DNA of 64,000 bases from Stenotrophomonas sp. (GTDB taxonomy: Bacteria; Pseudomonadota; Gammaproteobacteria; Xanthomonadales; Xanthomonadaceae): assembly GCF_035634915.1 (NCBI RefSeq), contig NZ_DASQCB010000019.1, forward strand, positions 67,668 to 131,667. Reading direction: 5' to 3'. Position numbers and translations under genes: made by a program. The notes beneath the pieces were generated by a model, which did not search any database, was not told the DNA's origin, and saw only the letters and a list, made by a program, of their open reading frames with translations. This document shows positions 1 through 58,698 of the stretch, one piece after another (positions within the stretch are counted from its first letter, which is position 1; every line of letters starts with the position of its first letter).

Positions 1-2633
1 TCGGTGGCGGTGACTACGCCATGCGCGCCTGGCTGGACCCGGACAAGGTGGCCTCGCGCGGCCTGACCGCCAGCGACGTGGTCGCCGCCATGCGCGAGCA
101 GAACGTGCAGGTCTCGGCCGGCCAGCTCGGTGCGGAACCGCTGCCCAACAGCCAGTTCCTGACCCTGATCAATGCCCAGGGCCGCCTGAAGTCCGAGAAG
201 GAATTCGGCGACATCGTTCTCAAGAGCGGCACCGATGGCGAGATCGTGCGCCTGTCCGATGTGGCCCGCGTGGAACTGGGCGCCGGCGACTACACCCTGC
301 GCTCGCAGCTGGACGGCAAGAACGCCGTGGGCATCGGCATCTTCCAGGCACCGGGCGCCAACGCGCTGGAAATCCGTGATGCGGTCATCGGCACCATGGA
401 CGAGATGCAGAAGACCATGCCGTCCGACGTGAAGTACGAAGCGGTGTATGACACCACCATCTTCGTGCGTGACTCGATCAAGGCCGTGGTCTCCACCCTG
501 CTCGAAGCCATCGCCCTGGTGGTGCTGGTGGTGATCCTGTTCCTGCAGACCTGGCGTGCCTCGATCATTCCGCTGATCGCCGTGCCGGTGTCGGTGGTGG
601 GTACCTTCGCTGCGCTGTACCTGCTGGGTTTCTCGATCAACACGCTGAGCCTGTTCGGCCTGGTGCTGGCGATCGGCATCGTGGTCGACGATGCGATCGT
701 GGTCGTCGAAAACGTTGAACGCAACATCGAGGAAGGCCTCACCCCACTCGCAGCGGCCCACCAGGCCATGCGCGAAGTGTCCGGCCCGATCATCGCGATC
801 GCCCTGGTGCTGTGCGCCGTGTTCGTGCCGATGGCCTTCCTGTCCGGCGTCACCGGCCAGTTCTACAAGCAGTTCGCGGTCACCATCGCCATTTCCACGG
901 TGATCTCGGCGATCAACTCGCTGACCCTGTCGCCGGCCCTGGCCGCGCGCCTGCTGAAGCCGCATGACGCTGCCAAGGATGCGCCGACGCGCATCATCGA
1001 CCGCCTGTTCGGCTGGGTGTTCCGTCCGTTCAACCGCTTCTTCAAGTCCAGTTCGGAAAAGTACGAGCGTGGCGTGTCGAAGATCCTCGGCCGTCGTGGT
1101 GCGGTGTTCGTGGTCTACGCGATCCTGCTGGTCGGTACCGGCATGATCTTCAAGCTGGTGCCGCCGGGCTTCATCCCGACCCAGGACAAGCTGTACCTGA
1201 TCGCCGGCGTGAAGCTGCCGGAAGGCTCGTCGATCGCCCGTACCGATGAAATGCTGCGCAAGGTCGCCAGGATCGCCCAGGAAACCGATGGCGTTGCCCA
1301 CACCATTTCGTTCCCGGGCCTGAACGCGCTGCAGTTCACCAACACGCCCAACACCGGCGTGGCGTTCATTCCGCTCAAGCCGTTCGCCGAGCGTCATGGC
1401 CGTACCGCTGCGCAGATCAATGCCGAGATCAACCAGAAGATCGCCGGGCTGCAGGAAGGCTTCGCCTTCGCGATGATGCCGCCGCCGATCCTCGGCCTGG
1501 GCAACGGCAACGGCTACCAGATGTTCATCCAGGACCGTGGCAACCTGGGTTACGGCGCGTTGCAGAATGCCGTGCAGGCGATGCAGGGCACCGTCGCGCA
1601 GACCCCGGGCATGGCCTTCCCGATCACCAGCTACCAGGCCAACGTGCCGCAGCTGGATGCGGAAGTGGACCGCGTCAAGGCCAAGGCCCAGGGCGTGCAG
1701 CTCACCGAGCTGTTCGACACCCTGCAGACCTACCTGGGTTCGGCCTACGTCAACGACTTCAACCAGTTCGGTCGTACCTGGCAGGTGATCGCCCAGGCCG
1801 ATGGCCCGTTCCGCGAGAGCGTCGAAGACATCGGCAAGCTGCGTACCCGCAATGATCGCGGCGAGATGGTGCCGATCGGTTCGATGGTCACCGTCAAGCA
1901 GACCTTCGGCCCGGACCCGGTGCTGCGCTTCAACGGCTACCCGGCCGCCGACCTGGCCGGTGAAGCCGATCCGCGCCTGCTGTCCTCGGCCGAAGCGATG
2001 AACAAGCTGACCGAGATCGCCGGCAAGGTGCTGCCGGTGGGCATGACCACCGAATGGACCGACCTGAGCTACCAGCAGGCCACCCAGGGCAAGGCTGCCT
2101 TCATCGTGTTCCCGGTGGCGATCATGCTGGCCTTCCTGGTGCTGGCGGCGCTGTACGAAAGCTGGTCGCTGCCGCTGGCGGTGATCCTGATCGTGCCGAT
2201 GACCCTGCTGTCGGCCCTGTTTGGCGTGTGGATGACCGGTGGTGACAACAACGTGTTCGTGCAGGTCGGCCTGGTGGTGCTGATGGGCCTGGCGTGCAAG
2301 AACGCGATCCTGATCGTCGAGTTCGCTCGAGAACTGGAAATGGGCGGCAAGGGCATCGTTGAAGCGGCGCTGGAAGCCTGCCGCCTGCGTCTGCGTCCGA
2401 TCGTGATGACCTCCATCGCGTTCATCGCCGGCACCGTGCCGCTGGTGCTGTCCCACGGTGCAGGCGCCGAAGTGCGCTCTGTCACCGGCATCACGGTGTT
2501 TGCCGGCATGCTGGGCGTGACCCTGTTCGGTCTGTTCCTGACCCCGGTGTTCTACGTGGCCCTGCGCAAGTTCGTCACCCGCAACGGCGGTGGCCAGCTG
2601 GTGCAGCACGGCGATCCCACCCTCCATCACTGA
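1..2633 (+). CDS. smeW: RND multidrug efflux permease (AcrB/MexB type), 5' end outside window
   Basis: The frame of ORF 21..2633 stays open to the window edge. The translation is a large multi-TM RND sequence. It is followed by an SDR gene and a NodT-type OMP gene, the order known for S. maltophilia smeU1-V-W-U2-X. Confidence 0.85.
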   Translation, partial: GGGDYAMRAWLDPDKVASRGLTASDVVAAMREQNVQVSAGQLGAEPLPNSQFLTLINAQGRLKSEKEFGDIVLKSGTDGEIVRLSDVARVELGAGDYTLRSQLDGKNAVGIGIFQAPGANALEIRDAVIGTMDEMQKTMPSDVKYEAVYDTTIFVRDSIKAVVSTLLEAIALVVLVVILFLQTWRASIIPLIAVPVSVVGTFAALYLLGFSINTLSLFGLVLAIGIVVDDAIVVVENVERNIEEGLTPLAAAHQAMREVSGPIIAIALVLCAVFVPMAFLSGVTGQFYKQFAVTIAISTVISAINSLTLSPALAARLLKPHDAAKDAPTRIIDRLFGWVFRPFNRFFKSSSEKYERGVSKILGRRGAVFVVYAILLVGTGMIFKLVPPGFIPTQDKLYLIAGVKLPEGSSIARTDEMLRKVARIAQETDGVAHTISFPGLNALQFTNTPNTGVAFIPLKPFAERHGRTAAQINAEINQKIAGLQEGFAFAMMPPPILGLGNGNGYQMFIQDRGNLGYGALQNAVQAMQGTVAQTPGMAFPITSYQANVPQLDAEVDRVKAKAQGVQLTELFDTLQTYLGSAYVNDFNQFGRTWQVIAQADGPFRESVEDIGKLRTRNDRGEMVPIGSMVTVKQTFGPDPVLRFNGYPAADLAGEADPRLLSSAEAMNKLTEIAGKVLPVGMTTEWTDLSYQQATQGKAAFIVFPVAIMLAFLVLAALYESWSLPLAVILIVPMTLLSALFGVWMTGGDNNVFVQVGLVVLMGLACKNAILIVEFARELEMGGKGIVEAALEACRLRLRPIVMTSIAFIAGTVPLVLSHGAGAEVRSVTGITVFAGMLGVTLFGLFLTPVFYVALRKFVTRNGGGQLVQHGDPTLHH

Positions 2634-12343: not shown

Positions 12344-12736
12344 TGGTGGAGGTGGGCGGAATTGAACCGCCGTCCGAAGGCACTCCATCCCCAGCACTAC
12401 ATGCTTAGCTCACCGTTGGATCTCGCCCCCGAGCAGCACGGTGTGCAAAGCGCACCCGGGGACCAGCCTGTTGTGTTCTAGTGCCGGACTGACAGGCAGC
12501 CGCCCAGCGCGATTCCATGATAATGACTCTACGCTGCGAGCATGGACACAAGCAGTTTCGAGGCTCCGCCTAAGTCGGCAGAAGGTCACGCACCGCAGTT
12601 TTTAGGCTGCGAGAGCGACCGGAGCGTAGTTGTCGTCGTTGGCAACTAGAGTTTTGCAGCTGGATTTACGAGGACAGCTACCCCCTCGGCATGCGCCAAG
12701 CGACTTCACAACCCCCGTCGAAACCAATGCACCCCC
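12344..12736 (-). ncRNA. ssrA: tmRNA (transfer-messenger RNA)
   Basis: On the minus strand the 5' end reads GGGGGTGCATTGGTTTCGACGGGGGTTGTGAAG. The 3' end reads GGCGGTTCAATTCCGCCCACCTCCACCA (T-arm plus acceptor CCA). An internal tag ORF encodes ANDDNYAPVALAA-stop at 12602..12643. Confidence 0.93.
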
Positions 12737-27577: not shown

Positions 27578-28777
27578 ATGTCCAGCCTGGCCACACCCAC
27601 CCCCGCCGTCCGCAGCTCGACCCGCGGCGTACTGGCGGCGATTTCCACCTCCCATGTCGTCAACGACATGATGCAGTCGCTGATCCTGGCCATCTATCCG
27701 GTGATCAAGGGCGGCTTCAACCTCAGCTTCACCCAGATCGGCCTGATCACGCTGACCTACCAGCTGACCGCCTCGATCTTCCAGCCGCTGGTCGGCCTGG
27801 TCACCGACCGCAGGCCCGCGCCGTACTCGCTGCCGATCGGCATGGCCTCGACCCTGTGCGGCATGCTGCTGCTCGGCTTCGCGCCAAATTACGCAATGGT
27901 GCTGCTGGCCGCGGCCATGGTCGGCATCGGTTCGGCCATCTTCCACCCGGAAGCCTCGCGCATCGCGCGACTGGCCTCCGGCGGCCGTCACGGCTTTGCC
28001 CAGTCGGTGTTCCAGGTCGGTGGCAATTTCGGGACTGCCTTGGGCCCGCTGATTGCCGCGGCGGTGATCGTTCCCTACGGCCAGCACGCTGCCTCGTGGT
28101 TTGCCGGCGCCGCGCTGATCGGCATCGCCCTGCTGACCTATGTCAGCCGCTGGTATGCGCTGCACCTGGGCACGCCGCGTCCGGTCGGGCAGGGCACGAT
28201 GGCCGCGCGGCATCCCACCCGCACCGTGGCCAGGGTGATGGTGATCCTGCTGGTGCTGATCTTCAGCAAGTACTTCTACATGGCCAGCATCGGCAGCTAC
28301 TTCACCTTCTACCTGATCCACCACTTCGGCATTCCGGTGGCGCAGGCGCAGCTGCATCTGTTCGCGTTCCTGGTGGCCTCGGCGGCCGGTGGCTTCCTCG
28401 GTGGCCCGCTGGGCGACCGCATCGGCCGCAAGCCGATCATCTGGACCTCGATCCTGGGCGTGGCGCCGTTCGCGCTGGCGCTGCCGCATGCGGATCTGTT
28501 CTGGACGACGGTGCTGGCGGTGCTGATCGGCTTCGTCCTGTCGTCGGCGTTCTCGGCCATCGTGGTGTATGCGCAGGAGATGATGCCGCACCGCATCGGC
28601 ATGGTCTCGGGGTTGTTCTTCGGTTTTGCCTTCGGCATGGGTGGGCTGGGCGCGGCGGTGCTGGGCCTGCTGGCTGACAGGACCAGCATCGAGTACGTGT
28701 ACCAGCTGACCGCGTTCCTGCCGCTGTTGGGCATCATCGCGGCCTGGCTGCCGCCGTCACGTCCTGCTGCTCACTGA
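27578..28777 (+). CDS. MFS transporter (Fsr-like)
   Basis: 399 aa with about 12 TM and the MFS loop motif DRRPAPY / GDRIGRK. Confidence 0.85.
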   Translation: MSSLATPTPAVRSSTRGVLAAISTSHVVNDMMQSLILAIYPVIKGGFNLSFTQIGLITLTYQLTASIFQPLVGLVTDRRPAPYSLPIGMASTLCGMLLLGFAPNYAMVLLAAAMVGIGSAIFHPEASRIARLASGGRHGFAQSVFQVGGNFGTALGPLIAAAVIVPYGQHAASWFAGAALIGIALLTYVSRWYALHLGTPRPVGQGTMAARHPTRTVARVMVILLVLIFSKYFYMASIGSYFTFYLIHHFGIPVAQAQLHLFAFLVASAAGGFLGGPLGDRIGRKPIIWTSILGVAPFALALPHADLFWTTVLAVLIGFVLSSAFSAIVVYAQEMMPHRIGMVSGLFFGFAFGMGGLGAAVLGLLADRTSIEYVYQLTAFLPLLGIIAAWLPPSRPAAH

Positions 28778-28787
28778 GGGGTGGGGT

Positions 28788-29375
28788 TTGCAGGGCTTGC
28801 AGCCCTGCACCTGCTGCAATCAACGGCAATGTCAGAAGCCAGAGCGGCATTCCGTGGGATGGCGGGGTGGGTCCGGTTGAGGGGGACGCTGCAAGTACGT
28901 CCATGTAAGCTCGGTCGCCGCATCCATGCGGCTCACGCCCCCTCAACCGGACCCACCCCGCCTTCGACAGTTGTCCGCGGTCTGTCGGAACAGCGTTCTG
29001 CTTTGGTGGGTGCCGACCGTTGGTCGGCACGGGGTCGGATATCGATATCTGACAGACGTGTCGACCAACGGTCGACACCTACCAACAACGACACAGTAGA
29101 GCCACGCCATGCGTGGATGAATTCATCCGATATTTGACAATTGTGCCGACCAACGGTCGGCACCCACCAACAGCTGTATTTGCCAACAGCCGCGGGAAAC
29201 TGTCAGAGGTGGGGCGGTGTGGGTGGGCAGGACCGTTGGCGCCATGGATGGCGCCATCGAGCCCCCATGGATGGGTTTACGGCGTGTCCTGCCCACCCAC
29301 ACCTCCCCGCCATCCCACGGAATGCGGCTCTTGATCTTGCTTCGGCTTCTGCAGGTGCAGGGCTGCAAGCCCTGC
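28788..29375. repeat. composite repeat superstructure A (two inverted ~180-bp elements flanking SMAG palindromes)
   Basis: Left copy 28788..28970 and right copy (reverse) 29200..29375. The core holds GGTGGGTGCCGACCGTTGGTCGGCAC, GTGTCGACCAACGGTCGACACCTACC, GTAGAGCCACGCCATGCGTGGAT and GTGCCGACCAACGGTCGGCACCCACC. Confidence 0.85.
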
Positions 29376-29405
29376 CGAAAACCCCCTTGGGCGTAGAATG
29401 CGGGG

Positions 29406-30314
29406 ATGAGCGAATCCCTCGACAACCACCTGCTCCACGGCCGTCGCCAGCGCCCCGACGGGCCCTCGCCGATCGACGTCATCTCCGTCCAGTCGCAGCT
29501 CGTCTACGGCCACGCCGGCAACAGCGCCGCCGTCCCGCCGATGCGCGCCCTCGGCGTGCGCGTGGCGGAAATCCCGACCGTCCTGCTCAGCAATGCGCCG
29601 TTCTACGACACCACCCGTGGCCGCGTGCTGCCCGCCGACTGGTTTGCTGATCTGCTGCTCGGTGCCCGCGAACGCGGCCTGCCGCAGCGGGCGAAGAAGC
29701 TGGTCTCCGGCTACTTCGGCAGCGCCGCCAACGGTGCCGCCTTCGCCGACTGGCTGGACGAGGTCCTGCCGGCCTGTCCGCAGCTGCGCTACTGCCTGGA
29801 CCCGGTGATTGGTGATACCCACACCGGCCCCTATGTGGAGCCGGGGCTGGAGGCGATCTTCGGCGAACGCCTGCTGCCGCATGCGTGGCTGGTCACGCCC
29901 AATGCCTTCGAGCTGAACCGGCTGACCGGCATGCCGGCCCTGGCCGAGGCCGACGCCATCGCCGCAGCGCGCACGCTGCTGGCGCGTGGTCCGCAGTGGG
30001 TGATCGCGCACAGCGTGGGCGGCAACCCGGGTGAACTGGTCACCCTGGCCGTCGGCCACGAGGAAACCTGGCGCTGGACTTCGCCACTGCTGCCGGTGGA
30101 CGTGGCCGGCACCGGTGATGTGCTGATGTCGCTGGTGGTTTCCTTCCTGCTGCGTGGCGAGTCGATGCAGCAGGCCATCTCGCGCGCCATTGCCGGTACC
30201 CATGCCGCACTGGAAGCCACCCTGGTCAACGGCTTCGAGGAATTCGACGTGATCGCTGCCGCGCCTGCCGCGCTGGCGGAGGCCACCCGCTTCCACGCCG
30301 AACGCGTGGCATGA
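29406..30314 (+). CDS. pdxY: pyridoxal/pyridoxamine kinase
   Basis: SVQSQLVYGHAGNSAAVPPMRALG... closely resembles the PdxY N-terminus. A ribokinase-like fold motif DVAGTGD is present. Confidence 0.85.
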   Translation: MSESLDNHLLHGRRQRPDGPSPIDVISVQSQLVYGHAGNSAAVPPMRALGVRVAEIPTVLLSNAPFYDTTRGRVLPADWFADLLLGARERGLPQRAKKLVSGYFGSAANGAAFADWLDEVLPACPQLRYCLDPVIGDTHTGPYVEPGLEAIFGERLLPHAWLVTPNAFELNRLTGMPALAEADAIAAARTLLARGPQWVIAHSVGGNPGELVTLAVGHEETWRWTSPLLPVDVAGTGDVLMSLVVSFLLRGESMQQAISRAIAGTHAALEATLVNGFEEFDVIAAAPAALAEATRFHAERVA

Positions 30315-31552: not shown

Positions 31553-31624
31553 TGTAGAGTCGAGCCATGCTCGACTGCCTTATGCTCTCGGCCGAGAGCG
31601 TGTCGACCAAGGTCGACACCTACC
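31553..31624. repeat. three adjacent REP/SMAG palindromes
   Basis: TGTAGAGTCGAGCCATGCTCGACTGCC, then GCTCTCGGCCGAGAGC, then GTGTCGACCAAGGTCGACACCTACC. Confidence 0.7.
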
Positions 31625-31626
31625 AG

Positions 31627-31734
31627 AGCGGGGCGGCGCGAAATCCGTCAGCGCGAGGCCACAGCGGGGCGGCGCGAAATCCGGCAGGGCGAGACCAGAG
31701 CGGGGTGCCGCGAAATCCGGCAGCGCCGGGCCAG
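31627..31734. repeat. 36-bp tandem direct repeat, 3 copies
   Basis: AGCGGGG(C/T)G(G/C)CGCGAAATCCG... starts at 31627, 31663 and 31699. The copies are contiguous with no spacers. Confidence 0.85.
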
Positions 31735-33818: not shown

Positions 33819-34383
33819 GGGTGGCGTCGCGCAGGCGGATTTTCAATGCGTCGACCTGGTCGACGGGCAATTCCACCCGCAGCCGCACACCGTTGGCATC
33901 GAACTGTTCATCGCGCTTTTCGGCGGCAAACACGGGCAGGGCAGCGTGCAGGGTACCCAGGTCCTCGAAACCAGCCTGCAGCTGCAGGCGTGCCATTGCC
34001 ACCAGCGGCAGGCGCGGGGCGGTACGCAGGCACTCGGCGGCGGTGCCACCATAGGCGCGCACCAGGCCGCCGGCACCCAGCTTGATGCCGCCATACCAGC
34101 GGGTCACCACCACCACCACGCGGTCGAAGCCCTGGCCATCGATGGCCGCCAGGATCGGCCGCCCGGCGGTGCCGGCCGGCTCGCCATCATCGCTGGAACG
34201 GTACTCCTGGCCATGCCGGTAGGCCCAGCAGTTGTGGGTGGCATCGGCGACCGCCACCTGCTGCAGGAAGGCCAGCGCAGCCGCGCCGCTGTCGATGGCC
34301 GCGGCGTGTGCGGTGAAGCGACTGTGCTTGATGTCCAGCGTGTGGCTGACGGGCTGGGCGAGGGTATCGGGCATTCCCGCCAT
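33778..34383 (-). CDS. yigZ: YigZ/IMPACT family protein
   Basis: IKHSRFTAHAA...HNCWAYR...DDGEPAGTAGRPIL...VVVVTRWYGGIKLGAGGLVRAYG, typical of the family. Confidence 0.8.
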   Translation of the reverse strand: MAGMPDTLAQPVSHTLDIKHSRFTAHAAAIDSGAAALAFLQQVAVADATHNCWAYRHGQEYRSSDDGEPAGTAGRPILAAIDGQGFDRVVVVVTRWYGGIKLGAGGLVRAYGGTAAECLRTAPRLPLVAMARLQLQAGFEDLGTLHAALPVFAAEKRDEQFDANGVRLRVELPVDQVDALKIRLRDATRDRIRIQDDDQDD

Positions 34384-36134: not shown

Positions 36135-38996
36135 TTGTCCACGCAAGCCGACCGTGTGCCACTGCTGTCACCCCACGAGGCCGTCCTGAGCACGGCGCTG
36201 GTGCGCGCATTGCATGCGCTGTTGCCGGAAACCGCGATCGTGCGGGTGGGCTGGAACGACCCGCAGCTTGGCCGCGGCCAGGATGCCTGGCCGCAGGACG
36301 CTGCTGCGTCCGACAGGCCGGCGGCGGAAGACGGGCTCGACTGGGACCATACGGTATGGGAGCACGCGGCCTGGGAGCACGACGGGGCCCAGCTGTCGCT
36401 GCGCGTGCGCGGGGCATCGCCTTCGGAAGCCTGGTGGGGCGTGTCGCGGCAGGCGATGGAACTGGCCCTGCAGCGCGGCCGCCAGGCCGGGCAGATCCGC
36501 GCACTGGAACAGGCTGAACGCCTTCAGCAGGCGCTGTTCCAGATTGCCGATCTGGCCGGCGCCGACCTGGAGATGGGCGAGATGCTGCGCCACGTGCACG
36601 GCGTGCTGGGTTCGCTGATGTACGCGGAGAACTGCTACATCGTCGAGTACGACGATGTGCGCGACCAGATGCGGTTCCTGTATTTCGCCGACCAGGTGGA
36701 TGACTTCGTGGCTGACCCTTCGGTGAGTTACGACGCCGGGCAGATGCCACGCAGCCTGACCGTGGCGCTGCTGCGCCACGGCAAGCCACTCAGCGGCCCA
36801 TCGCGCGAACTGCTGGCCGATGCCGAAGACGAGCACGACCCTGAGCGCGGCCCGGAAAGCCTTGATTGGCTGGGTGTGCCGATGCTGCGCGATGGCCGCG
36901 TGTGTGGCGCCATCGTGGTGCAGAGTTACCAGCAGGCCTCGCTGTATGGCGAGGCCGAGCGCGCGCTGCTGGGGTTTGTCGCCCAGCACGTGCAGACCGC
37001 GATGGACCGGCGCCAGGCACAGGTGCGGCTGGAACAGCAGGTGGAACGGCGCACCCTGGAACTGCAGCGTGCCAACCGCAGCCTGCAGGACGAGGTGGCC
37101 GAGCGCCGCCGCGCCGAACAGCTGCAGACCGCCCTGTACAACATCGCCGAAATGGCGATGTCGGCCGACAGCCTGGCCCAGTTCTACGGCCAGGTGCACG
37201 GCGTGGTGGGACGCCTGCTGGACGCGCGCAATTTCTACATCGCCCTGGTCACCGCGCAGGGCGATGGCCTGGATTTCGTCTACTCGGTGGACGAACACAA
37301 TGCCTCGCGCGCGCCGCGTGCGTTCAGCCGTGGCCTGACCGAATACGTGGTACGCCACCGGCGCCCGCTGCTGGCCTCGCGGGCACAGATCGATGCACTG
37401 CTGGCCACCGGCGAAGTGCGTGAGTCGGGCGTGCGTTCGCACTGCTGGCTGGGCGTGCCGCTGCTGCGCGATGACGAGGTGGTGGGCGCGATCGTGGTGC
37501 AGAGCTACACCGATCAGATCGCTTTCAGCGTGCATGACCAGCGGCTGCTGACCTTCGTGGCGCAGAACATCGGCACTGGCCTGGCCCGCCAGCGCGACCA
37601 GCAGCAGCTGCGTTCGGCCCATGCCGAGCTGGAAAAGCGCGTGGAAGAGCGCACCCGCGAGCTGGCCGAGGTCAATGACAAGCTGCTGGGCCAGATCGCC
37701 GAGCGCCTGCGCGCCGAACAGCGGTTGACCCACCAGGCCATGCACGATGCGCTGACCGGCCTGCCCAACCGCCTGCACCTGCTCGACCGCCTGGAGGACG
37801 CGCTGGCGCTGGCCCGCCGCGAGGGCGGCCCGGAGTTCGCGGTGCTGTTCCTGGACCTGGACCGCTTCAAGCTGGTCAATGACAGCATCGGCCACGCCGC
37901 TGGCGACCGCATGCTGGTGGAAGTGGCCAAGCGCATCGTCTCGATGGCCGGTGATGGCGACGTGGTGGCGCGACTGGGCGGTGATGAATTCGCCATCCTG
38001 CTGGAATGTCCGCAGGGTTTGGCCCAGGCGCTGGATTTCGGCCAGCGCCTGCTGCTGGCCCTGCAGGAATCGATGTGGATTGCCGGGCGCGAGCTGTTCC
38101 CTTCGGGCAGCCTCGGCATCGCCCTGTGGAACACGCACTACCGCACCGGCGAAGAGCTGCTGCGCGACGCCGATGCGGCCATGTACCGGGCCAAGGCCCA
38201 GGGCCATGACCGCTGCGCGATCTTCGACGAGGACATGCGCGAGCAGGCCATGCGCAGCCTGGACCTGGAAGCGGACCTGCGCCGGGCGATCAACAACCGT
38301 GATTTCGTGCCGTTCTACCAGCCCATCGTGCGCCTGTCCGATGGCGAAGTAGTCGGCCACGAGGCGTTGCTGCGCTGGCAGCACGAGCGCCGCGGCCTGC
38401 TGCTGCCCGGCGCCTTCCTGGAACTGGGCGAGGAGAGTGGCCTGATCGAACAGGTCGACTGGCTCATCTACGAGCAGGTCATCGCCGGCCTGGCCGATGG
38501 TGGCCGCGGCTATGTGTCGGTGAACGTGTCACCGCGGCATTTCCGTTCAGCCGATTTCAGTGCACGCCTGTTCGGCCTGCTGGAAGCCAACGATGCCGAT
38601 CCGCAACGCCTGCGCCTGGAAATCACCGAGGTGGCGCTGCTGGACGATGGCCCGCATACGCTGCGCATCCTCAAGGGCCTGCGCGAGCGCGGCATCCAGG
38701 TACAGCTGGATGACTTCGGTACCGGCTTCTCGGCGCTGTCCTACCTGCACCGGTTCCCGATCAGCACCCTGAAGATCGACCAGAGCTTCATCGCCGGGCT
38801 GCACGGGCCGGAGGCACAGAGCACGCGTGCGCTGGTGGAGGGCGTGCTGTCGCTGGCGCGCACCCTGGGCATCGAAACCATCGGTGAGGGCATCGAGACC
38901 GAAGCCCAACGCCAGAGCTTGTTCGAGCTGGGCTGCGACTACGGCCAGGGCTACCTGCTGGGGCGGCCGGCACCGTGGACGCGCGCGGTGGCCTGA
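36135..38996 (+). CDS. GAF-GAF-GGDEF-EAL signalling protein (diguanylate cyclase/phosphodiesterase)
   Basis: Two GAF-like regions (LGVPMLRDGRVCGAIVVQSY, LGVPLLRDDEVVGAIVVQSY). Canonical RLGGDEFAIL, then EALLRW, DDFGTG and KIDQSFI. TTG start is tentative. Confidence 0.85.
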   Translation: MSTQADRVPLLSPHEAVLSTALVRALHALLPETAIVRVGWNDPQLGRGQDAWPQDAAASDRPAAEDGLDWDHTVWEHAAWEHDGAQLSLRVRGASPSEAWWGVSRQAMELALQRGRQAGQIRALEQAERLQQALFQIADLAGADLEMGEMLRHVHGVLGSLMYAENCYIVEYDDVRDQMRFLYFADQVDDFVADPSVSYDAGQMPRSLTVALLRHGKPLSGPSRELLADAEDEHDPERGPESLDWLGVPMLRDGRVCGAIVVQSYQQASLYGEAERALLGFVAQHVQTAMDRRQAQVRLEQQVERRTLELQRANRSLQDEVAERRRAEQLQTALYNIAEMAMSADSLAQFYGQVHGVVGRLLDARNFYIALVTAQGDGLDFVYSVDEHNASRAPRAFSRGLTEYVVRHRRPLLASRAQIDALLATGEVRESGVRSHCWLGVPLLRDDEVVGAIVVQSYTDQIAFSVHDQRLLTFVAQNIGTGLARQRDQQQLRSAHAELEKRVEERTRELAEVNDKLLGQIAERLRAEQRLTHQAMHDALTGLPNRLHLLDRLEDALALARREGGPEFAVLFLDLDRFKLVNDSIGHAAGDRMLVEVAKRIVSMAGDGDVVARLGGDEFAILLECPQGLAQALDFGQRLLLALQESMWIAGRELFPSGSLGIALWNTHYRTGEELLRDADAAMYRAKAQGHDRCAIFDEDMREQAMRSLDLEADLRRAINNRDFVPFYQPIVRLSDGEVVGHEALLRWQHERRGLLLPGAFLELGEESGLIEQVDWLIYEQVIAGLADGGRGYVSVNVSPRHFRSADFSARLFGLLEANDADPQRLRLEITEVALLDDGPHTLRILKGLRERGIQVQLDDFGTGFSALSYLHRFPISTLKIDQSFIAGLHGPEAQSTRALVEGVLSLARTLGIETIGEGIETEAQRQSLFELGCDYGQGYLLGRPAPWTRAVA

Positions 38997-42488: not shown

Positions 42489-42492
42489 CGCC

Positions 42493-42680
42493 CGGTAGGT
42501 GCGCACCTTGGTGCGCACGCGGGGGTGCCTGCCGGCCAGGAAGGCCACGCATGGCGTGGCTCTACTGCCCCAGGTAGGTGCGCACCTTGGTGCGCACGCG
42601 GCGGTGCCTGTCGGCCAGGAAGGCCACGCATGGCGTGGCTCTACTGCCCCAGGTAGGTGCGCACCTTGGTGCGCACGCCC
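42493..42680. repeat. 79-bp tandem repeat (about 2.4 copies) built from two SMAG types
   Basis: GGTAGGTGCGCACCTTGGTGCGCAC starts at 42493, 42572 and 42651. It is interleaved with GGCCACGCATGGCGTGGCTCTAC. Confidence 0.85.
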
Positions 42681-47249: not shown

Positions 47250-47275
47250 GCAACCGCGCTGCGAGCAATACACGG

Positions 47276-47301
47276 AAAACCCCGCGCAAGCGGGGTTTTT
47301 T
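47276..47301 (+). terminator. rho-independent terminator after secF
   Basis: AAAACCCCGC-GCAA-GCGGGGTTTTTT. Confidence 0.75.
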
Positions 47302-47304
47302 GTT

Positions 47305-47896
47305 GGCAGGGCTTGCAGCCCTGCACCTGCTTCAAGCCAGGGCAACTTCAAAAGCCGGAGCGGCATTCCGTGGGATGGCGGTGCACTGTGGGTTTGCGGG
47401 GACGGCGCAAGTACGTCCATGTAGCCTTGGTCGCCGCATCCATGCGGCTCACACCCCGCAAACCCACAGTGCCCCGCCTTCGACAGGTTCACGCGGCTGT
47501 TGGCAACGGCGCTACGCGGCTGTTGGTAGGTGTCGACCTTGGTCGACACATCTGTCAGATATCGAACGAGATCATCCGTGTCGACCAAGGTCGACACCTA
47601 CCAGAGCAGAGCGCCGTTCCGACAGATCACGGAAGTCTGTCGAAGGCGGGGTGGGTCCGGTTGAGGGGGCGTGAGCCGCATGGGCCCGAGGCATGCCTCG
47701 GGCGGGTTGGGCAGGACGCCCAACCCCGGTCTTGCCGTGTGCGCAGGACAGCGCACACGAGCAAGCGGCGACCGAGCTTACAGGGACGTACTTGCAGCGT
47801 CCCCCTCAACCGGACCCCCCCGCCAACTCACGGACAGCCCGCTTTTGACGTTGCCGTTACCGTTGCACTGAGCAGGTGCAGGGCTGCAGGCCCTGC
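47305..47896. repeat. composite repeat superstructure B
   Basis: Left ~180-bp copy 47305..47486 and right copy (reverse, 260 bp with an insertion) 47637..47896. The core holds an inverted pair of GGTAGGTGTCGACCTTGGTCGACAC units. Confidence 0.85.
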
Positions 47897-48005
47897 AGAA
47901 AAACCCCACCCTACGCCAGCGTCGGTTGTGCAATCAGCCCCTGCGCACTACGATCCTGCGGTTCGCGTGCGCCCCGTGCGCCGCATCTGCCAACCCGAGG
48001 TTTCC

Positions 48006-56200: not shown

Positions 56201-57766
56201 ATGGATACCAGCGCCCCCCGTTTCGACAACCGCCTGCTGACCGCCCTGCCGGGCGATCCCGAGAGCGGCCCGCGCCGCCGCGAAGTGCGCGGTGCCGCAT
56301 GGTCATCGGTGATGCCGACGCCAGTGGCTGCACCGACCCTGCTGGCCTGGTCGCCGGACGTCGCCGCGCTGCTTGGCTTCGAGGCAGCCGACGTGCAGGA
56401 CGATGACTTCGCCCAGGTGTTTGGCGGCAACGCGTTGTACGCCGGCATGCAGCCGTGGGCAGCCAACTACGGTGGCCACCAGTTCGGCCACTGGGCGGGC
56501 CAGCTGGGCGATGGCCGCGCGATCTCGCTGGGTGAACTGGTGGCCGCTGATGGCCGGCACTGGGAGCTGCAGCTGAAGGGCGCCGGGCCGACCCCGTACT
56601 CGCGCGGCGCAGATGGTCGCGCCGTGCTGCGCTCCTCCATCCGCGAGTTCCTGTGCAGCGAAGCGATGCATCACCTGGGCGTGCCTACCACGCGCGCGCT
56701 GTCGCTGGTCGGCAGCGGCGAGGACGTGGTGCGCGACATGTTCTACGACGGCCACCCGCGCGCCGAACCCGGTGCCATCGTCTGCCGCGTGGCACCGTCG
56801 TTCATCCGCTTCGGTACGTTCGAACTGCCGGCATCACGCGGCGAGACCGCGCTGTTGAAGCAGCTGGCCGATGCCTGCATCGCCCGCGATTTTCCCGAAC
56901 TGCTGGGCGAGGGCGAGGCGCTGCATGGCGACTGGTTCGCACAGATCGCCGTGCGCACCGCCGAGCTGATGGCGCACTGGATGCGCGTCGGTTTCGTGCA
57001 CGGGGTGATGAACACCGACAACCTGTCCGTGCTAGGCCTGACCATCGACTATGGCCCGTATGGCTGGGTGGAGGACTACGACCCGGACTGGACGCCGAAC
57101 ACCACCGATGCCCAGGGCCGGCGCTACCGCTTCGGCACCCAGCCACAGGTGGCGTACTGGAATCTCAACCGGCTTGCACAGGCGCTGTCGCCGCTGTTCG
57201 CCGACGTGCAGCCGCTGCAGGCGGGGCTGGCGGCGTTCCAGTCCACCTTCGTGGCCTGCACGCGCCGCGATGCCGCCGCCAAGCTGGGCCTGGCCGCCGC
57301 CGATGACGATGACCTGCAGCTGTACCTGCGCTGGCAGCAGCTGTTGCAGGACGGCGGGATGGACATGACGCTGGCGTGGCGCGCACTGATGCGGGTGGAT
57401 GCGTCGGCGCCGGATGCCGGCGTGCTGGAGGCGGTGTACTACGACGACGCGCGCCGGCAGGCGGTGCAGGCGCCGCTGCAGCAGTGGCTGCAGGAGTATG
57501 CCGCGCGGTTGCGTGCCGATCCGCTGACGGCGGACGCACGGCTGGCGAAGATGGCGGCAGCCAATCCGCTGTACGTGCTGCGCAACTGGTTGGCGCAGGA
57601 AGCGATCGACCGGGCGGAGCAGGGCGACCTGGGCGGGGTGCATGCGCTGCAGGACGTGCTGCGTGATCCGTACACGGAGCGGCCGGGGCTGGAGCACTAT
57701 GCCGGCAAGCGACCGGCGTGGGCGGATCACCGTGCCGGGTGCTCGATGCTGTCCTGCAGTTCGTAG
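56201..57766 (+). CDS. selO: protein adenylyltransferase SelO (YdiU)
   Basis: NYGGHQFGHWAGQLGDGRAISLGE...GVMNTDNLSVLGLTIDYGPYGW, typical SelO. Start moved to Met51 (MDTSAPRF). Confidence 0.88.
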   Translation: MDTSAPRFDNRLLTALPGDPESGPRRREVRGAAWSSVMPTPVAAPTLLAWSPDVAALLGFEAADVQDDDFAQVFGGNALYAGMQPWAANYGGHQFGHWAGQLGDGRAISLGELVAADGRHWELQLKGAGPTPYSRGADGRAVLRSSIREFLCSEAMHHLGVPTTRALSLVGSGEDVVRDMFYDGHPRAEPGAIVCRVAPSFIRFGTFELPASRGETALLKQLADACIARDFPELLGEGEALHGDWFAQIAVRTAELMAHWMRVGFVHGVMNTDNLSVLGLTIDYGPYGWVEDYDPDWTPNTTDAQGRRYRFGTQPQVAYWNLNRLAQALSPLFADVQPLQAGLAAFQSTFVACTRRDAAAKLGLAAADDDDLQLYLRWQQLLQDGGMDMTLAWRALMRVDASAPDAGVLEAVYYDDARRQAVQAPLQQWLQEYAARLRADPLTADARLAKMAAANPLYVLRNWLAQEAIDRAEQGDLGGVHALQDVLRDPYTERPGLEHYAGKRPAWADHRAGCSMLSCSS

Positions 57767-57775
57767 GGGGGTGTT

Positions 57776-58472
57776 TTGCAGGGCTTGCAGCCCTGCACCC
57801 GCTCACTGCAACGGCAACATCAAAAGCTGGGTATCCGTGGGATGGCGGGGTGGGTCCGGTTGAGGGGGACGCCGTAAACCCATCCATGGGGGCTTGGTCG
57901 CGCCATCCATGGCGCTCACACCCCCTCAACCGGACCCACCCCGCCTTCGACCGTTTCCCGCGATCTGTCGGACATGCTCTTGGGGGGGGGGGCCGACCGT
58001 TGGTCGGCACTTGGTTGGATATCCAGGTCTGACAGATGTGTCGACCGAGGTCGACACCTACCAACAGCGCCGTTGCCAGTAGATCCACGCCATGCGTGGA
58101 TGAATTCATTCGATGTCTGACAGATGTGTCGACCAAGGTCGACACCTACCAACAGCGCTGTTGCCAATGTATCCACGCCATGCGTGGATGAATTCATTCG
58201 ATATCTGACAGATGTGTCGACCAAGGTCGACACCTACCAACAGCCGCGCGCAGCAACAGTCGCAGTTACCGACAGCCGCAGGAATCTGTCCGAGGTGGGG
58301 CACTGTGGGTTCGCGGGGTGTGAGCCGCATGGATGCGGCGACCAAGCCCCCATGGACGGGTTCACGGCGTCCCCGCGAACCCACAGTGCCCCGCCATCCC
58401 ACGGAATGCAGCTCTTGCCTCGGCCGTTGCAGTTGCCGTTGCATTGAGCAGGTGCAGGGCTGCAAGCCCTGC
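57776..58472. repeat. composite repeat superstructure C
   Basis: Left ~180-bp copy 57776..57951 and right copy (reverse) 58286..58472. The core includes about 2.7 copies of an 88-bp two-palindrome module (about 58017..58252). Confidence 0.85.
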
Positions 58473-58505
58473 AAAACCCCCTACAACGATGGTATTACCC
58501 ATTCA

Positions 58506-58520
58506 GTGCGATATTCGCAC
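58506..58520. promoter_or_regulatory. operator-like palindrome upstream of the beta-helix/porin/aroD/MFS cluster
   Basis: GTGCGATATTCGCAC sits inside a larger inverted repeat, ACCCATTCAGTGCG...CGCACTTGAATGGT (58496..58548). A half-site GTGCGATAA lies at 58552. The 11-mer TGCGATATTCG recurs inverted at 63851..63861. Confidence 0.4.
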
Positions 58521-58698
58521 GCACAGTCGATTACCGCACTTGAATGGTGCAGTGCGATAAACCTAATTTCACTCCCGCAGTTTCATAGCAGTCCAAGCGA
58601 TCCACCCCTGGCGGGGCGAGGGCAGCAGCCGGTCCGGTGCTGAAGCCAGGTGCAGGGGAAGACCGCCGGATTTCCCTTCACCTGTGCGGAGTGTTCGC

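Follow-up and report, generated by a model that had tools for sequence, protein, structure and literature searches.

Three intergenic spacers of the analysed window, the whole 64,000-nucleotide stretch of Stenotrophomonas DNA, each hold two facing copies of a long structured element. This raises the question of what the repeated unit is, to which known repeats it is related, and whether its conserved pairing reflects a function or merely the way in which repeats are copied. An earlier reading of these letters (the sequence-only reading) had proposed selection on structure or a non-autonomous mobile element with very long terminal inverted repeats.

Six arms form three facing pairs in the window

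The six copies lie at the coordinates and in the orientations that had been reported, as three facing pairs, and all six have the same layout. In each copy, hereafter called an arm, a G/T-rich lead-in is followed by the palindrome GCAGGGC(T/C)TGCAGCCCTGC, a variable stretch and CCGTGGGATGGCGG, after which a long hairpin enclosing two small hairpins runs into the closing sequence CCGCCTTCGACAG, which in beta arms often reads CCACCTCTGACAG. The parts of the three loci are listed below; alpha and beta denote the arm classes described in the next section.

28778-28975, plus strand: locus A alpha arm, stem class v1 (covariance model 135.6 bits)
28778-28789, plus strand: lead-in of this arm, GGGGTGGGGTTT
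28790-28808, plus strand: palindrome of this arm
28809-28851, plus strand: variable stretch of this arm
28852-28970, plus strand: three-way-junction core of this arm
28976-29194, unstranded: locus A centre, four REP/SMAG units in alternating orientation
29005-29030 (plus), about 29058-29083 (minus), about 29097-29119 (plus), about 29143-29168 (minus): the REP/SMAG units of locus A
29195-29393, minus strand: locus A beta arm, v3 (covariance model 127.5 bits)
29200-29320, minus strand: three-way-junction core of this arm
29357-29375, minus strand: palindrome of this arm, with the lead-in to about 29389
29230-29342: sub-threshold match to Rfam Ysr224 in the locus A beta arm
47291-47490, plus strand: locus B beta arm, v2 (covariance model 124.5 bits)
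47306-47324, plus strand: palindrome of this arm; three-way-junction core at 47368-47486
47491-47636, unstranded: locus B centre, two REP/SMAG units with heads outward, 47525-47549 (plus) and 47578-47602 (minus)
47637-47912, minus strand: locus B alpha arm, long form; core 47637-47833 with a nested 81-nt insertion
47820-47833, minus strand: degenerate core motif of this arm, CCGTGAGTTGGCGG; palindrome at 47878-47896
57767-57960, plus strand: locus C alpha arm (covariance model 138.1 bits)
57778-57796, plus strand: palindrome of this arm; three-way-junction core at 57835-57953
57961-58285, unstranded: locus C centre, a REP/SMAG cluster
58022-58285: locus C tandem repeat, three copies of an 88-bp REP-pair unit
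58286-58486, minus strand: locus C beta arm, v2 (covariance model 127.2 bits)
58286-58404, minus strand: three-way-junction core of this arm, then a hexamer-repeat stretch and the palindrome at 58454-58472

The outer palindrome occurs at 6 sites in the window, against 0.15 expected. The 14-mer core is found there five times exactly and once with two mismatches; when up to two mismatches are allowed 2.2 matches are expected, and one unrelated match lies at 34377. A covariance model built from the family recovered exactly these six places in the window. Every arm folds with an energy of -99 to -118 kcal/mol on either strand. The paired stem measures 25-27 bp when its conserved GGCGGGG/CCCCGCC base is included, and the inverted symmetry extends inward past CGACAG. 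In the long copy at 47637-47896, the loop of the second inner hairpin is extended by an 81-nt insertion (47684-47764), which recurs at the identical loop position at six further loci (L125, L162, L178, L210, L219 and L230).

All three loci begin, as had been noted, at an upstream stop codon or terminator. The alpha arms of loci A and C adjoin directly (0 nt) the TGA stop of an MFS gene (28775-28777) and the TAG stop of selO (57764-57766), and locus B follows the T-run of the secF terminator, for which the beta lead-in GGGGTTTTTT also serves as 3' half and T-run. The spacing to the next start codons likewise agrees with the earlier description, at 16-30, about 95-110 and about 200 bp; beyond the locus A beta arm, pdxY starts at 29406.

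At Rfam gathering thresholds, the sole match in the window and 18 loci was the tmRNA at 12344-12736. Matches to miRNA precursors at permissive thresholds were dismissed as generic long-hairpin matches, real sequence similarity being seen for Ysr224 alone. Hammerhead and other small ribozyme cores, tRNA-like and 5S-like folds were dropped after comparing the junction sequences by eye with their consensus cores, and Rfam gave no such match. An intrinsic terminator was also rejected for the outer palindrome: its hairpin comes after the U-run on one strand and before an A-run on the other, and the interior of locus A has no promoter-like or terminator-like site. The open reading frames listed across the elements are spurious long frames as are usual for G+C-rich DNA. 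A literature search for the Stenotrophomonas motif sequences found nothing.

The repeated unit is an asymmetric composite

The arrangement was followed through about 190 arm copies at 110 loci in more than 20 genomes of the S. maltophilia complex. Of 73 pairs of adjacent arms at these loci, 69 are in facing orientation, so that the facing layout is not peculiar to the window. The unit that is repeated is the whole asymmetric composite of 520-750 bp. One arm, alpha, carries a GGTCCGG stem and the other, beta, a GTGTGGG, CTGTGGG or GTGTCGG stem, and all 28 classified pairs combine an alpha with a beta arm. When alpha is set on the left, the centre always reads a long hairpin or a right-pointing REP (REP>) and then a left-pointing one (<REP). 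The centre of locus A matches the REP classes Smal3 and S_sp1 of Nunvar 2010.

Because the composite is an oriented element with two diverged arm classes, two identical stems never occur at one locus; this rule, first noticed within the window, generalises to other loci. The proposal of very long terminal inverted repeats survives in part: the arms are paired inverted repeats with 60-85% identity, but they are not equivalent, as they belong to two diverged classes on either side of a polar centre. The three unrelated stem versions of the sequence-only reading proved instead to be points in a graded series, with dozens of variants in two arm classes, and its statement that the 22-25-bp SMAG description is insufficient for these elements was borne out. 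Chimeric, truncated and IS-disrupted copies occur, and deletions have fused the two facing arms, as in L173. Each superstructure probably represents a single copy of a non-coding composite repeat that is confined to the S. maltophilia complex, apparently an undescribed variant of a known repeat family.

Pairing in the arm core is conserved while its sequence is not

The arm core comprises 119 nt and forms a three-way junction. For covariation analysis the alignment was pre-filtered to at most 6 mismatches in the 27-nt arm, with three exceptions restored. Paired cells amount to 94.4%; the corresponding share is 77.4% after shuffling and 39-52% when the partners are slid. Changes on both sides were seen at 25 of 40 base pairs, a count that overstates independent events because many alignment rows are orthologous copies. 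Covariation is retained within classes (11 pairs in the alpha subset, 24 in the beta subset), the small hairpins H1a and H1b covary with just 3-4 bp each, and RNAalifold independently predicted the identical junction. The structure-preserving variation is therefore strong, as the first reading had suspected, and the structural constraint on the arms is real.

The helices behave as cassettes. The versions of the outer stem, of H1 and of H2 are reassorted into almost every combination, and among 96 full cores only some 2-3 have mismatched arm versions. When one orthologous locus was compared between 8 species, arm versions, hexamer repeats and REPs proved to have been swapped between flanking genes that are ~95% identical. 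The long stems contain 15 G-T cells and 56 A-C/C-A cells, as compared with 2223 Watson-Crick cells. Because G-U wobble is rare and chimeric, truncated and IS-disrupted copies exist, these data do not single out RNA-level selection over constraint or correction at the DNA level.

Such observations would be expected if the palindromes were maintained neutrally in inert repeat DNA, one arm of an inverted repeat being copied from the other by intrastrand template switching during replication (quasi-palindrome correction) and whole hairpins being spread among copies by gene conversion. Templated mutation of quasi-palindromes is an established mechanism. The rarity of wobble in the long stem fits DNA pairing better than G-U-tolerant RNA, both strands fold equally well, cassette reassortment is massive and extends to swapping at orthologous loci, and the fusion of facing arms in L173 is as expected of unstable inverted repeats. 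This account has to be weighed against the sequence of the unpaired bases, for which relatives of the arm are informative.

The arm core is a distant homologue of YPAL/RU-2

YPAL/RU-2 (Rfam RF02770, Ysr224) is the Yersinia palindromic sequence, a MITE of about 168 bp (De Gregorio et al. 2006, as reviewed by Delihas; Delihas 2007). Its reported insertion sites are dyad symmetries, and it is transcribed together with genes upstream, whose mRNA it affects (PMC2229807). A covariance model made from 94 Stenotrophomonas cores (R1) matched copies from Enterobacter (L239; 85 bits, E=3e-17), Yersinia (L231; 58.4 bits, E=5e-11), an E. coli plasmid (L238; 40.6 bits) and Pantoea (L237; 35.7 bits), with E-values on enterobacterial copies of 1e-5 to 3e-17 overall and controls at 23 bits or less. 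One further match of this model (L246) was set aside as an unrelated REP-doublet hairpin. In the reverse direction, Rfam Ysr224 scored the arms at 23.4-34.6 bits (E=1e-6); the arms do not reach its gathering threshold of 70 bits, and neither the window nor the 18 loci contain such a match. The Yersinia copy is identical to the published RU-2 sequence at 166 of 168 positions, and its H2 string was traced to Delihas 2007.

The arm core is thus a distant homologue of the YPAL/RU-2 MITE and not a new fold. The sequence-only reading had counted membership of an already catalogued MITE or REP family without transcript or structural conservation against itself, and through the Ysr224 homology this is partly the case. 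A whole Stenotrophomonas arm used as BLAST query found nothing among plasmids, the YPAL core had no match in the E. coli chromosome, and a 14-mer scan of viral contigs gave chance matches only.

Conserved loops bear on neutral maintenance and on possible RsmA binding

Both small loops read C-N-T-C-C-N-T-G and vary at the N positions only. The loop 8-mer is CNTCCNTG in 89 of 93 cases for H1 and 91 of 93 for H2, with entropy exceeding 1 bit solely at the two N positions, and the pattern holds in all enterobacterial copies inspected. The junction and six of the eight loop positions are invariant in ~90 Stenotrophomonas copies as well as in those from Yersinia, Pantoea, Enterobacter and the E. coli plasmid, which have unrelated stems. 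Correction of one arm by the other cannot keep unpaired bases unchanged across bacterial orders. The two arms of the composite are, moreover, kept different in 28 of 28 pairs, and H1a and H1b covary despite their shortness. We therefore consider purely neutral maintenance rather unlikely.

A different explanation of the loops is that the arms form a dispersed regulatory RNA module, which would recruit or titrate RsmA on many mRNAs; pairing of UCC loops with GGA ribosome-binding sites would be a weaker variant. On the opposite strand the loops become C-A-N-G-G-A-N-G hexaloops, the optimal CsrA/RsmA-RsmE site, and their spacing of about 25-30 nt suits one CsrA dimer. As the arms are inverted pairs, every transcript crossing the composite would carry one such dual site. 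The published CsrA consensus is (A/U)CANGGANG(U/A), with the SELEX motif RUACARGGAUGU (PMC6849547). Judged by its letters, the reverse strand of every arm contains (A/U)CANGGANG(U/A); that of Yersinia H1 reads CUACAUGGAUGU, the conservation of the loop 8-mer in Stenotrophomonas and enterobacterial copies is in keeping with this reading, and the 81-nt insertion brings two further hairpins with GUCCU loops, AGGAC on the other strand.

The motif is short, however, and in Yersinia it is the UCC strand that seems to be transcribed, to judge by the terminator layout and by the strand represented in the Rfam Ysr224 model. At other enterobacterial loci the element is co-oriented with the upstream gene, and convergent downstream genes make the transcribed strand ambiguous. 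Long-form arms persist even though the motif is lost at the inserted loop. A transposase or other DNA-binding protein recognising CATCC would also explain this conservation, and CATCC is found inverted in the conserved 5' flank GGGATGG. We know of no RsmA-titrating sRNA identified in Xanthomonadaceae. Regulation through RsmA is accordingly very unlikely in our view, and the three-way junction as a candidate protein-binding RNA module, a putative dual site for one CsrA/RsmA dimer, is a long shot.

Insertion-like behaviour at gene ends and the RAYT alternative

The element is absent from the orthologous spacers of sister species, as the presence/absence check proposed earlier revealed. The secF-fabV spacer measures 170-230 bp in three other Stenotrophomonas species as opposed to 756 bp in the window, and the MFS-pdxY spacer 68 and 110 bp in two relatives as opposed to 628 bp; secF-fabV or MFS-pdxY spacers without the element were found in S. 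tumulicola, S. rhizophila, S. daejeonensis and two closer relatives. Such insertion-like behaviour of a non-coding multi-copy element favours the earlier suggestion of a non-autonomous mobile element. The target-site duplication that had been suggested as a test was not visible in the two filled/empty comparisons, whose spacers are too diverged for certainty; at these two loci the element resembles a spacer replacement and not a clean insertion. Because identical loci are occupied across many species of the complex, what can be seen is turnover of content and not recent mobility.

A long open reading frame stops 5-27 nt before the palindrome at 97 of 129 outer ends, compared with 10-12 in control windows. 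Truncation of the upstream gene's C-terminus by insertion was rejected, as the MFS protein extends to the same C-terminal position as its orthologues.

The stop codons matter for the possibility that the composite is a giant REPIN/BIME-type element moved by a REP-associated tyrosine transposase (RAYT) or by an HUH enzyme of the IS200/IS605 kind. Lying 11-19 nt from a T-R-R(G), the outer palindromes would then act as subterminal hairpins recognised on single-stranded DNA, and the inner REPs would be part of this system as well. These inner units are indeed genuine REPs of classes for which Stenotrophomonas has cognate RAYTs, the inverted arrangement is like that of REPINs, and the outer ends have the form (G)T[AG][AG]GGGG...hairpin, often with GTAG. 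They resemble in this the left ends of IS608, in which a cleavage tetranucleotide lies upstream of a hairpin. Yet the tetranucleotide varies (CAAG, TTGG) where an end faces a promoter and, not being conserved there, T-R-R looks like the stop codon of the host gene and not like a signal of the element. The head of RAYT-flanking REPs, GTAG or GTGG directly before a 20-35-bp palindrome, is present in the inner SMAG units; it is lacking at the long hairpin and at the outer palindrome, for which the nearest T-R-R-G is variable and 11-19 nt off. The outer palindrome is not among the published Stenotrophomonas REP classes, and the solitary enterobacterial relatives lack such palindromes altogether. 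A crude HUH-motif screen detected no transposase or RAYT-like ORF near any of the 110 loci. Mobilisation by such an enzyme is therefore highly improbable.

A working model and its implications

In the explanation that we prefer, the two inverted arms, one alpha and one beta, are diverged YPAL/RU-2 relatives that bracket REP/SMAG palindromes in fixed polarity, and the element lies at gene 3' ends and terminator positions, where it takes up the spacer directly after the stop codon. Its anatomy, covariation, homology, polarity, position at stop codons and absence from sister species are observations, whereas the mechanism of mobility, transcription and any effect on mRNA are inferred. When single-stranded, an arm is predicted to adopt the 25-27-bp stem, the three-way junction and the two small hairpins with C-N-U-C-C-N-U-G loops. 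Gene conversion between genomic copies may exchange whole helices, and copies with an unpaired long stem would be removed or repaired, so that persistence would depend on the fold and not on the sequence of the stem. SMAGs are known to change the stability of upstream transcripts (PMC3184786). By analogy with YPAL and SMAG, the composite may be co-transcribed with flanking genes, and its most likely mode of working would be that of stable hairpins at 3' ends, barriers or processing structures that influence mRNA stability.

S. maltophilia repeats have hitherto been described by 22-25-bp SMAG/REP units, to which the composites add a second and much larger layer. At many gene ends they take up the entire intergenic spacer, and they will probably cause difficulties for annotation, assembly and MLVA typing. 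The range of the YPAL family is extended from Enterobacterales to Xanthomonadales. Across these orders the stems are free to vary whereas the junction with its two CNUCCNUG loops is fixed, which suggests a specific binding partner such as a transposase, an RNase or an RNA-binding protein. Cassette-like helices and rare mismatched stems also provide a natural data set for separating selection on the fold from palindrome self-correction and gene conversion. Should the loops bind RsmA, a mobile repeat would wire many genes into a global post-transcriptional regulator, giving the S. maltophilia complex a repeat-borne, genome-wide RsmA-binding network at gene 3' ends.

Comparison with known systems

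Like MITEs in general, the composite is multi-copy and non-coding and has inverted repeats at its ends. It covaries as structured RNA families do, but its Watson-Crick-only changes cannot separate RNA from single-stranded DNA. ERIC and Correia (NEMIS) elements are likewise non-coding MITEs with a long hairpin, insertion variants at fixed positions and ends that supply or abut stop codons, and are transcribed with neighbouring genes; their sequence is unrelated, and their TA target duplication was not seen in the composite.

With BIMEs (Nunvar 2010 for Stenotrophomonas; Roscetto 2008 for SMAG arrays) the composite shares a mosaic of palindromic units, their alternating orientation and the location at gene ends, and its centre is a REP/SMAG cluster that is sometimes tandemly amplified, as in the 88-bp units at 58022-58285. 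BIME descriptions, however, include neither the ~200-bp three-way-junction arms nor an outer non-GTAG palindrome, and it is the arms that define the composite, not the REPs. REPINs, or REP doublets (Bertels and Rainey 2011), also consist of an inverted repeat pair with compensated hairpin changes and intergenic dispersal. The composite is ~10x larger, its arms are of different classes, its outer palindrome has no adjacent GTAG head, and no RAYT link was found.

YPAL is a repeat of Enterobacterales and thus of a different bacterial order. Its termini TGAGGTTATTGAC...GTCAGCAGTCTGAA were not found in the Stenotrophomonas arms; YPAL is characterised by TGAGGTTATTGACAAAG ... TTGTCAGCAGTCTGAA and ~168 bp, whereas these arms measure about 195 bp, start with a G/T-rich lead-in and a 19-bp palindrome and close with TTCGACAG..CTGTCGG. 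The outer 19-bp palindrome and a hexamer microsatellite are additions relative to YPAL, the stem is G+C-rich and perfect, and apart from rare exceptions the arms form inverted alpha/beta pairs that enclose REPs. YPAL is further marked by a target-site duplication of 3-26 bp at or adjoining a dyad symmetry. A duplicated terminator lies on both sides of the copies from Yersinia, Pantoea and the E. coli plasmid; in the two Stenotrophomonas comparisons, with their diverged spacers, no duplication could be made out. Common to both is the architecture of a long variable stem, a three-way junction and two small hairpins, with H1 ACGCTGCAAGTACGTCC(A/G)TGTA(A/C)GCTC in the window nearly identical to that of the E. 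coli plasmid copy (25 of 27 positions). Both also have the CNTCCNTG loops, the junction strands (AC / TCGR / AC) and similar stem flanks, both are located at gene 3' ends and dyad symmetries, and a facing pair of the enterobacterial element is likewise present on one Enterobacter plasmid.

Six arms form three facing pairs

The sequence-only reading had described six copies of a structured repeat in three facing pairs, and direct reading of the three loci bore out both their positions and their arrangement. Each locus is one composite of two arms, an arm being a ~195-nt copy with a lead-in, an outer 19-bp palindrome, a variable stretch and a 119-nt three-way-junction core. As had also been noted, the composites lie just past gene ends and before the next gene:

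28778-29393, locus A, directly after an MFS transporter gene stop codon, 5' of pdxY
47291-47912, locus B, beginning past the T-run of the secF terminator, 5' of fabV
57767-58486, locus C, directly after the selO stop codon, 5' of a beta-helix protein gene

The distance from the element to these next start codons ranged from 16 to about 200 bp. A repeat finder recovered the six copies as direct and inverted families of up to 170 nt, and their alignment gave a mean identity of 62% over about 200 columns, with conserved blocks at the palindrome, CCGTGGGATGGCGG, the two small hairpins (H1 and H2) and the closing sequence. The window holds six palindrome sites versus 0.15 by chance, and the 14-mer core is present in five exact copies and one with two mismatches, a signal far above chance. 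Each arm is predicted to fold, on either strand, at -99 to -118 kcal/mol into a 25-27-bp stem around the two small hairpins, and the 47637-47896 copy is longer owing to 81 nt inserted into the loop of the second of these. On direct reading and alignment the finding is real and the earlier description largely accurate.

Several other features of the window were recorded:

12344-12736, reverse strand, full-length tmRNA gene (Rfam RF00023, 194 bits)
31622-31733, tandem array of three 36-bp units adjoining a REP
36589-37730, internal direct repeats 579-600 bp apart (families D7, D13 and D14, identity 71-83%)
42491-42648, tandem array of two 79-bp units with REPs inside
58022-58285, three tandem 88-bp REP-pair units within locus C
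58487-58640, A+T-richer stretch 3' of locus C with a repeated CAGTGCGATA(A/T) motif before the beta-helix protein gene

No gathering-level Rfam match other than the tmRNA was found in the window. The three arrays are VNTR loci of SMAG type, such as serve in MLVA typing, the 36589-37730 repeats look like a duplicated domain within a coding region, unrelated to the composite, and the CAGTGCGATA(A/T) motif is possibly an operator.

The composite has two unlike arms and a polar centre

A scan for the palindrome followed by the core, with one genome per species, returned at least 110 loci, and every locus among the matches listed came from the S. maltophilia complex (maltophilia, sepilia, pavanii, beteli, geniculata, muris, africana, forensis, riyadhensis, cyclobalanopsidis and others). 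A profile search of these loci yielded about 190 arm copies among the matches listed. Among these matches, 69 of the 73 pairs within 1.5 kb lay face to face with the palindrome outermost, most commonly with an inner gap of 105-135 nt. Facing pairs are therefore the general rule, which leaves the earlier interpretation of the loci as superstructures unweakened. Poly-G/poly-C and N runs occur inside arms of draft assemblies (L129:3725-3840; L121, L208 and L210), where the hairpins seem to break sequencing and assembly.

Instead of the three unrelated stem versions first reported, the arms carry dozens of variants in two classes, alpha (stem GGTGGGTCCGG...) and beta (CACTGTGGG, CGGTGTGGG or CGGTGTCGG). 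The claim that the two copies at one locus never share a stem version held well beyond the window: all 28 pairs with both arms classifiable among the matches listed combined alpha with beta, while random pairing would give about 35% same-version pairs. In the composites compared, the polarity of the centre was fixed with alpha on the left, the alpha-side unit being a 19-bp-stem hairpin (GGGGTCAGATCCGTTTTCC...) or a forward REP and the beta-side unit always a reverse REP. The simplest reading is that the entire 520-750-bp structure repeats as a single element whose two halves have diverged, which accounts for the lack of loci with two identical stems; the instability of long perfect palindromes is a possible additional selective reason for unlike arms. 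At some loci a beta arm is joined by a third arm type lacking both core motif and palindrome. The inner units match published REP/SMAG classes, but that the composite is a giant REPIN mobilised by a RAYT/HUH enzyme is most improbable, as no RAYT link was found in the published REP classes or in a crude HUH-motif screen of the loci among the matches listed.

Covariation supports the three-way junction

We scored 94 distinct 119-nt cores, drawn from loci among the matches listed, against a hand-drawn three-way junction; 91 had a 27-nt arm partner at six or fewer mismatches and three failed that filter. Standard pairs filled 94.4% of cells (77.4% when shuffled), 25 of 40 pairs were changed on both sides (21.2 shuffled) as were 666 cells (241 shuffled), and in 500 shuffles all three measures stayed below their observed values, figures to be read in the light of a filter that favours paired copies, of many rows being orthologues and of the ability of related sequences to beat shuffles. 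These two-sided changes agree with the earlier claim that the stems stay self-complementary as their sequence changes. Further pair types, 49 in the 94 cores, showed no excess over shuffling (47.8). Sliding the partners by 1-3 columns brought pairing down to 39-52% of cells, and this control, together with the number of different pair types, makes the fold itself secure. RNAalifold without an input structure returned the same helices with 23 compensated pairs. Covariation was present in all four helices, and also in alpha arms (11 pairs) and beta arms (24 pairs) taken separately.

The long stem comprised 2223 Watson-Crick, 15 G-T/T-G and 56 A-C/C-A cells, most of the last from two inherited positions. 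A wobble-rich, one-strand RNA would show a different pattern. The low G-T count fits a requirement for pairing on both strands, which is expected since the element is inserted in both orientations and always as an inverted pair, and equally fits pairing at the DNA level. In RNAalifold, two basal pairs alternate between G-C and G-U on the sense strand.

Among the matches listed, the loop 8-mer CNTCCNTG was present in H1 of 89 of 93 cores and in H2 of 91 of 93, with an entropy of 1.1-1.2 bits at the two N positions and 0.2 bits or less elsewhere; the conserved 5' flank GGGATGG includes the inverse of CCATCC. Two unlike ~80-nt inserts of further hairpins recur at one point of this motif, where they replace the AT ahead of CCATG:

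H2 insert: window 47684-47764; L125, L162, L178, L210, L219, L230
H1 insert: L128, L138, L150, L155, L176, L186, L189, L219, L221

They occur with all stem versions and together in L219, and the H2 insert bears two GUCCU loops. Either site-specific nested insertion or spread by conversion could have placed them.

The element mostly abuts stop codons and is absent from relatives' spacers

Between secF and fabV, S. tumulicola, S. rhizophila and S. daejeonensis have a spacer of 170-230 bp versus 756 bp in the window, and a terminator and a conserved motif upstream of fabV are present in all four. This motif, CGTCGGTTGTG...GCGCACTACGATCC (window 47912-47960; L232, L233 and L235, loci without the element), is probably a regulatory site, and in the window the element ends just before it. 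The secF terminator has the stem GGCCGCGC/GCGCGGCC at the three loci without the element and CCCCGC/GCGGGG in the window (47270-47304), where its 3' half and T-run are the G/T-rich lead-in of the element; it may have been rebuilt from the element's end. Likewise, two closer relatives have 68 and 110 bp between the MFS gene and pdxY versus 628 bp in the window, where the element reaches from the stop codon up to GGCGTA(A/G)AATGCG, a conserved sequence just 5' of pdxY. The MFS protein is not shortened, which rules out its truncation by the element. The suggestion of a mobile element was thus borne out in part: the element is missing from the relatives' spacers, but no target duplication was visible in either comparison, the spacers being highly diverged.

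Among the matches listed, an ORF of at least 100 codons stopped 5-27 nt ahead of the palindrome at 97 of 129 outer ends, compared with 10-12 in control windows further upstream. The usual outer end has the stop codon immediately before the G-run, and abutment was seen at 46 of 55 alpha and 39 of 57 beta ends among these matches. The end triplet is probably a stop codon of the host itself, since promoter-facing ends carry CAAG, TTGG and similar sequences in its place.

Helices appear to be exchanged as compensated cassettes

Versions of the outer stem, H1 and H2 combine in almost every way, which implies that helices are swapped as cassettes. At one locus orthologous in eight species, with flanking genes about 95% identical, the left arm has stem version v2 or v3 depending on the species and the right-arm stem occurs in three sequences, all fully compensated, while hexamer repeats and REP content also differ. 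Between palindrome and core lies a microsatellite of hexanucleotide units, (GCAACN)n, (GCCAGA)n or (GCCGAA)n, found at:

window 28809-28851, 29321-29356, 47325-47367, 57797-57834 and 58405-58453
other loci L144, L190 and L226

Its unit and copy number vary among arms and among species at one locus, making it a possible typing marker.

Conversion tracts ending within a core should often make mismatched stems. Cores joining halves of different versions are rare (L186, partly L197), which suggests that such copies are removed or repaired. Truncated copies also occur, and individual damaged forms include:

L186:7515-7635, v2 5' half with v3 3' half, unable to pair
L173:4024-4228, deletion joining the 5' stem halves of two facing arms
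L141 and L183, arms disrupted by an IS

The core is related to YPAL

No arm in the window or in 18 loci from elsewhere matched Rfam at curated thresholds; at permissive thresholds Ysr224 (RF02770) matched with E about 1e-6 and evident identity across both small hairpins. The Ysr224 consensus is present on Yersinia and Pantoea plasmids, and the Yersinia copy, identical at 166 of 168 positions to the reverse complement of the RU-2 printed by Delihas (2007), is by its sequence a YPAL miniature insertion sequence. We compared copies from Yersinia, Pantoea and Enterobacter and from E. coli, Klebsiella and Citrobacter plasmids. They share with the Stenotrophomonas arms the junction, the H1/H2 sequences, the CNTCCNTG loops and a basal 6 bp that covaries (GTAAAG/CTTTAC, GGAAAG/CTTTCC, GCAAAG/CTTTGC), whereas the distal stems are wholly unlike. 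A covariance model built from Stenotrophomonas cores only, for which E-values are rough, matched as follows:

Enterobacter copy, 85 bits, E=3e-17
Yersinia copy, 58 bits, E=5e-11
E. coli plasmid copy, 41 bits, E=7e-7
Pantoea copy, 36 bits, E=1e-5
control loci picked for carrying the 14-mer, 23 bits or less

Judged from these alignments and scores, homology of the core can be taken as established. An Enterobacter chuandaensis plasmid (L239) carries facing YPAL-like cores at 374-494 (+) and 595-718 (-), about 100 nt apart and with tandem repeats of about 62 nt ahead of them; Stenotrophomonas is thus not alone in having the inverted-pair layout. Purely neutral maintenance, by palindrome correction and conversion, is unlikely, given that unpaired loop and junction bases are invariant across bacterial orders.

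On insertion YPAL duplicates 3-26 bp of its target at or beside dyad symmetries, and it is transcribed together with upstream genes (Delihas review, PMC2229807). In agreement with the former, two copies of a local terminator hairpin (AAA-hairpin-TTT, about 21-28 bp) flank the Yersinia, Pantoea and E. coli plasmid copies (L231:1430-1640, L237:1085-1335 and L238:385-600), the left keeping the A-run and the right a long T-run, a pattern that suggests duplication of a bidirectional terminator when the copy inserted. On the reverse strand both loops read CANGGANG, the published optimal Rsm site (PMC6849547), and the arm could be a CsrA/RsmA-binding or anti-Shine-Dalgarno RNA module; we regard this as very unlikely, as the Yersinia terminator layout and the Ysr224 model strand suggest that the UCC strand is the transcribed one in Yersinia, and one motif is missing from long-form arms.

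With moderate confidence, we favour a composite, YPAL-derived, non-autonomous repeat of gene ends that is reshuffled by conversion. It would have invaded gene ends in the ancestor of the S. maltophilia complex, gene conversion since then reshuffling its copies, and copies without the fold would disappear. Its hairpins may be transcribed with neighbouring genes and serve as stable 3' structures; our confidence in such an mRNA-level role is much lower, because it draws on analogy with YPAL (PMC2229807) and SMAG (PMC3184786).

We found no description of the composite in the SMAG, REP/RAYT and YPAL papers examined. The arms fall below the Rfam threshold, lack YPAL termini and add the outer palindrome and the hexamer microsatellite, which leaves strict membership of YPAL unestablished. 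The element is best seen as an apparently undescribed composite form of a repeat family already known, not as a novel kind, and what makes it worth pursuing is its fixed alpha/beta polarity, its abutment on stop codons and an invariant loop motif common to bacterial orders.
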